Shown one piece after another: positions 53,638 to 53,959 of a stretch of DNA of 64,000 bases. The DNA lies in assembly GCF_056712565.1 (NCBI RefSeq), contig NZ_CM160072.1; one strand, written 5' to 3'. Every line of letters starts with the position of its first letter. Within the stretch, counting starts at the first letter, position 1. The translations under genes were made by a program, and so were the position numbers. The notes under the pieces are model-generated. The model was not told the DNA's origin. It saw nothing but the letters and a program-made list of their open reading frames with translations, and made no database searches.

Positions 53638-53819
53638 TTCGCTCTCCTTATTAAGGAGCGCAACACCAGCATCTTACCCTTACACTGCCTGTCGATACTG
53701 GTTTACGTATGTTGAGTCGCCATGTTGCACTCCGGATCAGAGCACTACCTGCGGCACCACCCGTCCGGTAGCCAGGACTTGAAATTGGTTCGATCCGGCG
53801 CAACTTCCCAACAGTCAGG

Positions 53820-53870
53820 ATTATAAATCTCATTATCTTAATTGCAACGGGGTCCGTAGGTGGTTATAAT
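53820..53870. promoter_or_regulatory. Back-to-back sigma70-like promoters sharing a palindromic -35 TTGCAA
   Basis: Plus: TTGCAA(53842-53847)-N17-TATAAT(53865-53870). Minus: same TTGCAA-N16-TATAAT (complement of 53820-53825). Confidence 0.6.
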
Positions 53871-53876
53871 TCGTTC

Positions 53877-53959
53877 GTTGGGGCGCCATGTTGCATAATC
53901 AGTAACTTAACGTCAAAGTTGTAAATAAAAGAACCTGCCTCACCAGCAGGTTTTTTTAT
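53877..53959 (+). ncRNA. orzO: Putative small antisense-acting RNA (OrzO-like antitoxin sRNA), about 83 nt
   Basis: Consensus promoter then intrinsic terminator (stem 53932-53952, T-run 53951-53960); 5' 19 nt (53877-53895) repeat 53711-53729 in the toxin leader at 16/19 positions. Confidence 0.5.

Follow-up and report, generated by a model that had tools for sequence, protein, structure and literature searches.

An unannotated zor-orz type I toxin-antitoxin locus of Escherichia coli carrying a variant Orz antitoxin

A short open reading frame and a small RNA (sRNA) gene lie divergently in the 64,000-nt stretch of DNA analyzed here (the window; assembly GCF_056712565.1, contig NZ_CM160072.1), and the 5' end of the sRNA repeats a segment of the leader that precedes the open reading frame. 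This arrangement raised the question of whether the two genes form a type I toxin-antitoxin pair in which the sRNA acts in trans on the toxin mRNA and, if so, how the pair relates to described systems. A sequence-only reading of the region had proposed an orzO-like antitoxin. The locus belongs to the published zor-orz type I family itself and does more than resemble it. We consider it very probable that the locus is a chromosomal zor-orz module of a minor zorQ/orzQ-type variant, in which the 5' end of Orz pairs with the zor leader. The window copy is an unannotated, slightly variant example of a system known since 2010. The mechanism of zor-orz has been dissected (Wen et al. 2014, PMC3919570; Wen et al. 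2017, PMC5397157), and an E. coli-wide survey extended to a third locus type, Q, and to loci that have orz alone (Shore et al. 2024, mSystems, PMC11264685). The features of the window locus are given in Table 1.

Table 1. Features of the zor-orz locus in window coordinates
Feature	Position	Strand	Details
orz antitoxin sRNA, Q-type variant "W"	53877..53957	+	~81 nt; 3' end approximate, inside the U-tract
sRNA 5' pairing domain, +1..+19	53877..53895	+	GTTGGGGCGCCATGTTGCA; V1 specificity triplet +9..+11 = GCC
orz promoter	53842..53870	+	-35 TTGCAA 53842-53847, 17-nt spacer, -10 TATAAT 53865-53870
orz intrinsic terminator, A-tract/U-tract hairpin	~53927..53957	+	fold, Rfam structure line, inverted repeat I2
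zor toxin ORF, 29 aa	53549..53638	-	MDTLTQKLTVLIAVLELLVALLRLIDLLK; from the ORF list; divergent from orz
zor promoter	53820..53847	-	-35 TTGCAA 53842-53847, 16-nt spacer, -10 TATAAT 53825-53820
zor 5' UTR, 174 nt	53639..53812	-	start 53812 placed by homology and promoter position
zor RBS, AAGGAG	53644..53649	-	+164..+169 from 53812; predicted to be sequestered in a stem
Orz target site in zor leader, +84..+102	53711..53729	-	GTTGAGTCGCCATGTTGCA (+ strand); direct repeat of the sRNA 5' end
probable zor terminator hairpin	53500..53531	-	inverted repeat I6 and fold; 3' end of zor mRNA

A 501-nt query showed 100% identity between the window and E. coli ATCC 11775, the type strain. In that genome, zor-orz is bordered by yehK (frameshifted) on one side and yehL on the other, and the same yehK/yehL slot was occupied in nine of nine further annotated E. 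coli genomes sampled, K-12-like and O157-like strains included. The window carries a single zor-orz copy. In none of the 13 E. coli genome regions inspected, that of the type strain among them, was the locus annotated in RefSeq, and an NCBIfam scan with the 29-aa peptide gave no family match; the peptide presumably lacks RefSeq annotation because NCBIfam has no model for it.

Several other features of the surroundings were recorded. RefSeq lists both yehK (window 52973-53289) and yehM as frameshifted pseudogenes in ATCC 11775 (L001 3494-3810 and 5689-7961), and yehK is intact in several other sampled strains. The interval that separates the yehK remnant from the zor terminator contains an insertion of ~151 nt (53316-53466) that is absent from strain 108 and has a 7-nt direct repeat, GTCGCAG, on either side. 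The core of the insertion matched the two classical ERIC-PCR primers with two mismatches each (53331-53352, - strand; 53353-53374, + strand), and no match was obtained at three or fewer mismatches with a 44-mer ERIC consensus. The insertion is probably an ERIC/IRU repeat element. A TPP riboswitch unrelated to zor-orz (Rfam RF00059; 71.2 bits, gathering score 54.3) is located elsewhere in the window, at 34343-34439 on the minus strand.

The identity of the sRNA was assessed by a scan of the whole window with Rfam models. The OrzO-P antitoxin family (RF02083) matched at 53884-53957 on the plus strand with 91.5 bits, compared to a gathering score of 60 (E = 1.4e-13), and the match covered the model in full (positions 1-76). 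A consensus scan recovered the orz promoter exactly where it had been proposed, as TTGCAA-17-TATAAT with 10 of 12 hexamer positions matching the consensus, and showed that the palindromic -35 TTGCAA is common to both divergent promoters. In zor/orz loci, conservation of the -35 TTGCAA and -10 TATAAT hexamers is at least 99% (PMC11264685), and these family hexamers are present for both genes at the window locus.

The start of the sRNA was placed at 53877, 7 nt past the -10 hexamer, in agreement with the sequence-only reading. The published V1 specificity triplet occupies +9..+11 and reads GAA in OrzO and ACG in OrzP (PMC3919570). When +1 was counted from the G of GTTGG, the two copies arranged in tandem in an O157-like strain (L002) yielded GAA and ACG, and this reproduction of the published numbering confirmed 53877 as +1 of the window sRNA. 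An 83-nt sRNA folded at -24 kcal/mol (z = -3.6), with no shuffle as good. The terminator hairpin was borne out by the fold and by the Rfam structure line, with its position shifted from the proposed 53932-53960 to ~53927-53957 and the transcript length adjusted from ~83 nt to ~81 nt (53877 to ~53957). A terminator consensus scan flagged the hairpin in the minus orientation only; since it stands between an A-tract and a T-tract, the orz terminator hairpin appears to be bidirectional. By analogy with the O allele described in the literature, the window Orz would be expressed.

Next, the toxin gene and its leader were compared with published zorO. The window peptide is identical, letter for letter, to the ZorO peptide of PMC6669753. 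The zorO mRNA has a 174-nt 5' UTR, an RBS at +164..+169 that is buried in a stem, and an EAP ("exposed after processing") region at +73..+102 that is opened by loss of the first 28 nt (PMC5397157). Counting from 53812, which lies 8 nt downstream of the last -10 base, reproduced the published layout in the window leader, with a UTR of 174 nt, the RBS at +164..+169, and the target at +84..+102. The mean unpaired probability of the RBS in the predicted fold was 0.07. A primary zor transcript of ~310 to 316 nt (about 315 nt) and a processed transcript of ~287 nt were predicted, and these agree with the published zorO transcripts of ~310 and ~280 nt.

In the minimum free energy fold, the 5' end of the full-length leader (GUUG...GUUGCGCCGGAUC) paired with the EAP/Orz-target region of the same RNA. 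The leader 5' end may therefore resemble a built-in antitoxin mimic, a model that fits the published sequestration of the EAP by the first 28 nt. The mean unpaired probability of the EAP was 0.25 in the full-length and Δ28 leaders alike. The folding thus failed to show the EAP opening published for the Δ28 form, a point that counts against the explanation and for which thermodynamic prediction is a weak test; Δ28 processing of the window allele would be expected from the O-allele literature. Both divergent transcripts start with GUUGGG (53804-53812, - strand; 53877-53882, + strand), and the promoter region is nearly symmetrical about the palindromic -35 TTGCAA. The shared starts and the promoter symmetry hint at an ancient inverted duplication.

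The 19-nt repeat was then analyzed as a potential site of pairing between the two RNAs. The sRNA 5' end and the leader segment are identical at 17 of 19 positions, 12 of them contiguous; the sequence-only reading had the positions and the contiguous run right and had counted 16 matches. The repeat extends to 24 nt (53706-53729 and 53872-53895) at 83% identity, and the chance expectation for a match with three or fewer mismatches is 0.02 per 64-kb window. As RNA, the sRNA 5' end is complementary to the toxin 5' UTR, as had been claimed, at 18 of 19 positions: the register consists of four Watson-Crick pairs, a G·U pair at +5, one Watson-Crick pair, a G/A mismatch at +7, and 12 further Watson-Crick pairs (17 Watson-Crick pairs in all). 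The duplex energy, which the same reading had put forward as a check, was -28.8 kcal/mol for the cognate window duplex versus -10.0 ± 2.9 for shuffled targets. When targets of the 5' 19-mer were sought on both window strands, the leader site was the best real one, with the next best at -26.0; the sole higher scorer was the sRNA's own antisense strand at 53877 (-39.0). Cofolding predicted the same helix of 19 bp between the two RNAs and put the net gain at about -20 to -22 kcal/mol. The target position, +84..+102, is the place at which OrzO binds zorO (PMC5397157). One prediction counts against pairing as the function of this segment, namely, that +6..+9 and +14..+18 of the pairing domain are base-paired inside the sRNA itself. 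Together, the RF02083 match, the ZorO-identical toxin, and the reproduced V1 numbering upheld the proposal of a trans-acting, orzO-like antitoxin.

Published rules for repression by Orz have been derived from the O allele, for which repression takes an uninterrupted pairing of at least 15 nt or, where one internal mismatch is present, a total of at least 17 nt (PMC11264685). O-allele constructs with 6(1)11 and 5(1)12 pairings repress, and 16-nt pairings fail. The window pairing is 6(1)12, or 18 of 19 positions when the G·U at +5 is counted, which lies within the O-allele-derived rule; a strict Watson-Crick count gives 4(1)1(1)12, a pattern absent among the published constructs. The O pair, described as having "18 nt" of complementarity, holds a G·U in every sampled O locus, so such pairs evidently count and are tolerated. 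Position +7 (window 53883 and 53717) is unpaired in the P, Q, and W cognate pairs (A/G, A/A, and G/A, respectively), and this mismatch is kept despite the differing bases, also in the L002, L020, and L028 units; the O pair alone is continuous there. The conserved +7 mismatch could be a selected feature, for example, one that shapes RNase III cleavage.

To place the window pairing among natural variants, zor/orz units were gathered from metagenome contigs, from genomes of E. coli, and from three genomes of Escherichia other than E. coli. Both pairing partners were extracted from 25 units, and further units were added later. The units fell into classes O, P, Q, and W, where W is the class of the window (Table 2). 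The third class was equated with the published zorQ/orzQ because locus L028 encodes the ZorQ-defining A20S toxin.

Table 2. Allele classes of the Orz 5' end and zor leader, with genomes counted by equivalent 65-nt sRNA queries in 5,426 complete E. coli genomes
Class	sRNA 5' end	Leader site (+ strand)	Genomes
O	GTTGGTACGAAATGTTGCA	GTTGGTACGAAACGTTGCT	1,262
P	GTTGGAACACGATGTTGCA	GTTGGACCACGATGTTGCA	4,696, orz-only loci included
Q	GTTGAGATGCCATGTTGCA	GTTGAGTCGCCATGTTGCA	856
W (window)	GTTGGGGCGCCATGTTGCA	as in Q	238; 234 at >=99% identity, i.e., 0 mismatches over 65 nt

A matching sRNA/leader pair was kept in 25 of 25 sampled loci. Between the O, P, Q, and W alleles, both sides change at 5 of the 19 intermolecular pairs. 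Cells were paired in 93.9% of cases in register versus 27 to 44% in slid registers, and the observed covariation score was reached by 0 of 500 shuffles. Cognate duplexes fell between -27 and -30 kcal/mol, whereas every non-cognate pairing of sRNA and leader stayed between -14 and -23 kcal/mol. This natural covariation, read from sequence alone, independently supports selection on the pairing and a specificity-determining role of the variable block, in agreement with the mutational work. In the published survey, which described three locus types and copy-number variation, 99.8% of loci keep repressive pairing (PMC11264685), and the window allele fits inside the variation surveyed there.

In the pairing domain, OrzW has G in place of the A of OrzQ at both +5 and +7, and C in place of U at +8. 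The three transitions convert a Watson-Crick pair to G·U (+5), one mismatch to another (+7), and a G·U to a Watson-Crick pair (+8); they offset one another, so that total pairing is unchanged relative to OrzQ. The W allele is present as a single copy in ATCC 11775 and forms a tandem with a P copy in strain N96. A metagenome scan with the leader anchor yielded 16 loci, none of which had the W sRNA allele. A scan of genome contigs with the RBS/leader anchor returned E. whittamii and two Escherichia sp. and no E. coli, though the window has the pattern. Predicted pairing to the zorP leader was -23.4 kcal/mol for OrzW (15 Watson-Crick and 2 G·U pairs) versus -15.5 kcal/mol for OrzQ, with the cognate pairing of OrzW unchanged. 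It is nevertheless unlikely that W would constitute a functionally distinct fourth specificity sub-class, for example, one that cross-regulates a co-resident zorP, such as that of N96, or tunes toxin repression in this lineage.

Other variants were noted among the sampled loci. The K-12-like strain 8A has an orz-only locus (L023 1510-1680) with an intact orzP-type sRNA gene, both promoters, and ~28 nt of zor leader, without target site or toxin ORF; it corresponds to OrzPmg, the orphan antitoxin published for MG1655. In a metagenome unit (L006, minus strand, unit 12175), the Zor stop codon is lost and the peptide continues ...LLKQWA. Loci L004 and L013 combine Zor A20V with an OrzO variant, GTTGGTGCGAAATATTGCA, and their pairing falls to -24.1 kcal/mol. 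The idea that the window locus is a recombinant, with its leader and a non-cognate orz derived from different tandem copies, was rejected, as pairing of OrzW with its own leader equals that of any cognate pair; a hybrid locus is also contradicted by N96, in which the W sRNA/Q-leader combination is found beside an intact P copy.

Three alternatives to an antitoxin that acts by pairing with the zor leader were considered. According to the first, the sRNA is real and has its main job elsewhere, like the orphan OrzPmg of MG1655, and the leader match is a leftover. Approximately 30% of E. coli genomes have a conserved, expressed orz without zor (PMC11264685), as exemplified by the orz-only locus of strain 8A, and several other window sites can pair in register with the 19-mer at 15 to 17 of its 19 positions (-22 to -26 kcal/mol). 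However, those sites are weaker than the leader site, the window locus has both an intact toxin gene and the target site, and covariation between the sRNA 5' end and the leader requires selection on that very pairing. We therefore regard a main function elsewhere as quite improbable, and other targets would in any case be compatible with regulation of zor by Orz.

According to the second alternative, OrzW is a weakened or decaying antitoxin whose A5G, A7G, and U8C changes leave 12 contiguous pairs, so that the toxin is less repressed or unrepressed. In the OrzO series, 12 continuous pairs alone gave no repression and 16-nt discontinuous pairings failed, and the window pairing has two interruptions by a strict Watson-Crick count. 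Nonetheless, the W duplex, at -28.8 kcal/mol, is as stable as those of OrzQ/zorQ (-27.3 kcal/mol) and OrzP/zorP (-28.1 kcal/mol); the three transitions conserve total pairing, G·U is tolerated in the O pair, and the W allele is fixed in 234 to 238 genomes with promoters and ORF intact. Decay of the antitoxin thus appears very unlikely. The third alternative, that the 19-nt repeat is a chance or historical duplication without a regulatory role and that regulation occurs by promoter competition at the common -35, can be given almost no credence: overlap at one palindromic TTGCAA could make polymerase binding mutually exclusive and so may supplement the pairing mechanism, but it cannot substitute for it in view of the 0.02 matches expected per window, the compensatory covariation at 5 pairs, and the published mutational and compensatory experiments showing that pairing is required for the O allele.

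With repression by Orz pairing as the preferred reading, a working model for the locus can be outlined. Back-to-back sigma-70 promoters with one common -35 hexamer would drive zor leftward and orz rightward. The leftward transcript would be a zor mRNA of ~315 nt whose 174-nt leader buries the RBS of a 29-aa inner-membrane toxin, and the rightward transcript would be an Orz sRNA of ~81 nt whose first 19 nt pair with leader positions +84..+102. By analogy with the O allele, this pairing would block the single-stranded EAP (standby-like) region needed for efficient translation and would also trigger RNase III-dependent decay, so that toxin synthesis is turned off.

The model draws on published work with the O allele. 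Zor overproduction is toxic, and rescue by Orz is RNase III dependent and Hfq independent, as established for the O allele only (PMC3919570). The overproduced O-allele toxin is an inner-membrane protein that depolarizes cells, and the 5' end of the O-allele sRNA alone suffices for repression. OrzO also blocks translation through occupancy of the EAP (PMC5397157). Toxicity of the window Zor, RNase III dependence, and Hfq independence would be expected on the basis of these O-allele results. With respect to physiology, cells with multicopy zor-orz grew better in aminoglycosides, an effect independent of toxicity, and one chromosomal copy was without phenotype (PMC9860968).

The closest sampled class was zorQ/orzQ. 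The leader block is identical to that of L028, which encodes the A20S toxin, the sRNA body is very similar, and the locus occupies the same yehK-proximal slot; identity over 484 nt was 95.0% to L020, compared to 92.7% for P-type and 90.4% for O-type loci. This Q-type call is based on the leader block and overall identity; the published definition of the type is a BLASTn bit score of >650 to the zorQ/orzQ query (PMC11264685). Differences from zorQ/orzQ include, in addition to +5, +7, and +8, a few positions in the sRNA body; the window toxin has the ZorO sequence (A20), whereas ZorQ has S20; and the window locus is single copy in ATCC 11775, whereas the sampled Q loci have a P or O copy in tandem.

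The zorO-orzO locus of O157:H7 EDL933 (PMC3919570, PMC5397157) has the same 29-aa toxin, divergent promoter layout, hexamers, and Rfam family. It differs from the window locus in the V1 triplet (GAA in OrzO, GCC in the window) and in its pairing, which is continuous over 18 nt in the O pair and interrupted at +7 in the window. Cross-pairing between the two was predicted to be weak (OrzW/zorO, -19.1 kcal/mol; OrzO/zorQ-W, -17.5 kcal/mol), compared to about -29 kcal/mol for cognate pairs. In the tisB/istR-1 and shoB/ohsC systems, too, a divergent sRNA acts in trans: its 5' end binds a long, processed toxin leader at a site well upstream of a sequestered RBS, in keeping with a standby-site logic. 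However, these are different sequence families with different toxins, and the resemblance is one of mechanism without membership; the window locus scored 31.6 bits with the ohsC_RNA model (Rfam RF02495), for which the gathering score is 50.

One expectation of the sequence-only reading, that lethality upon deletion of the sRNA would distinguish an antitoxin, is not decisive for zor-orz. In MG1655, which naturally has no OrzO, a strain with a single chromosomal copy of Δ28-zorO under its native promoter was obtained, and ZorO protein was undetectable in it (PMC9860968); the zorO primary transcript is itself poorly translated (PMC5397157). Given this viable strain and the poorly translated transcript, a tolerated sRNA deletion would leave antitoxin function unrefuted. 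In other respects, the full zor-orz architecture had been correctly recovered from the sequence alone.

The practical value of these results is the annotation of the locus, and the discovery value is small. For the family, the covariation of the O, P, Q, and W alleles is independent in silico backing for the published pairing model, and W is a natural 6(1)12 variant that can be used for testing the pairing rules.
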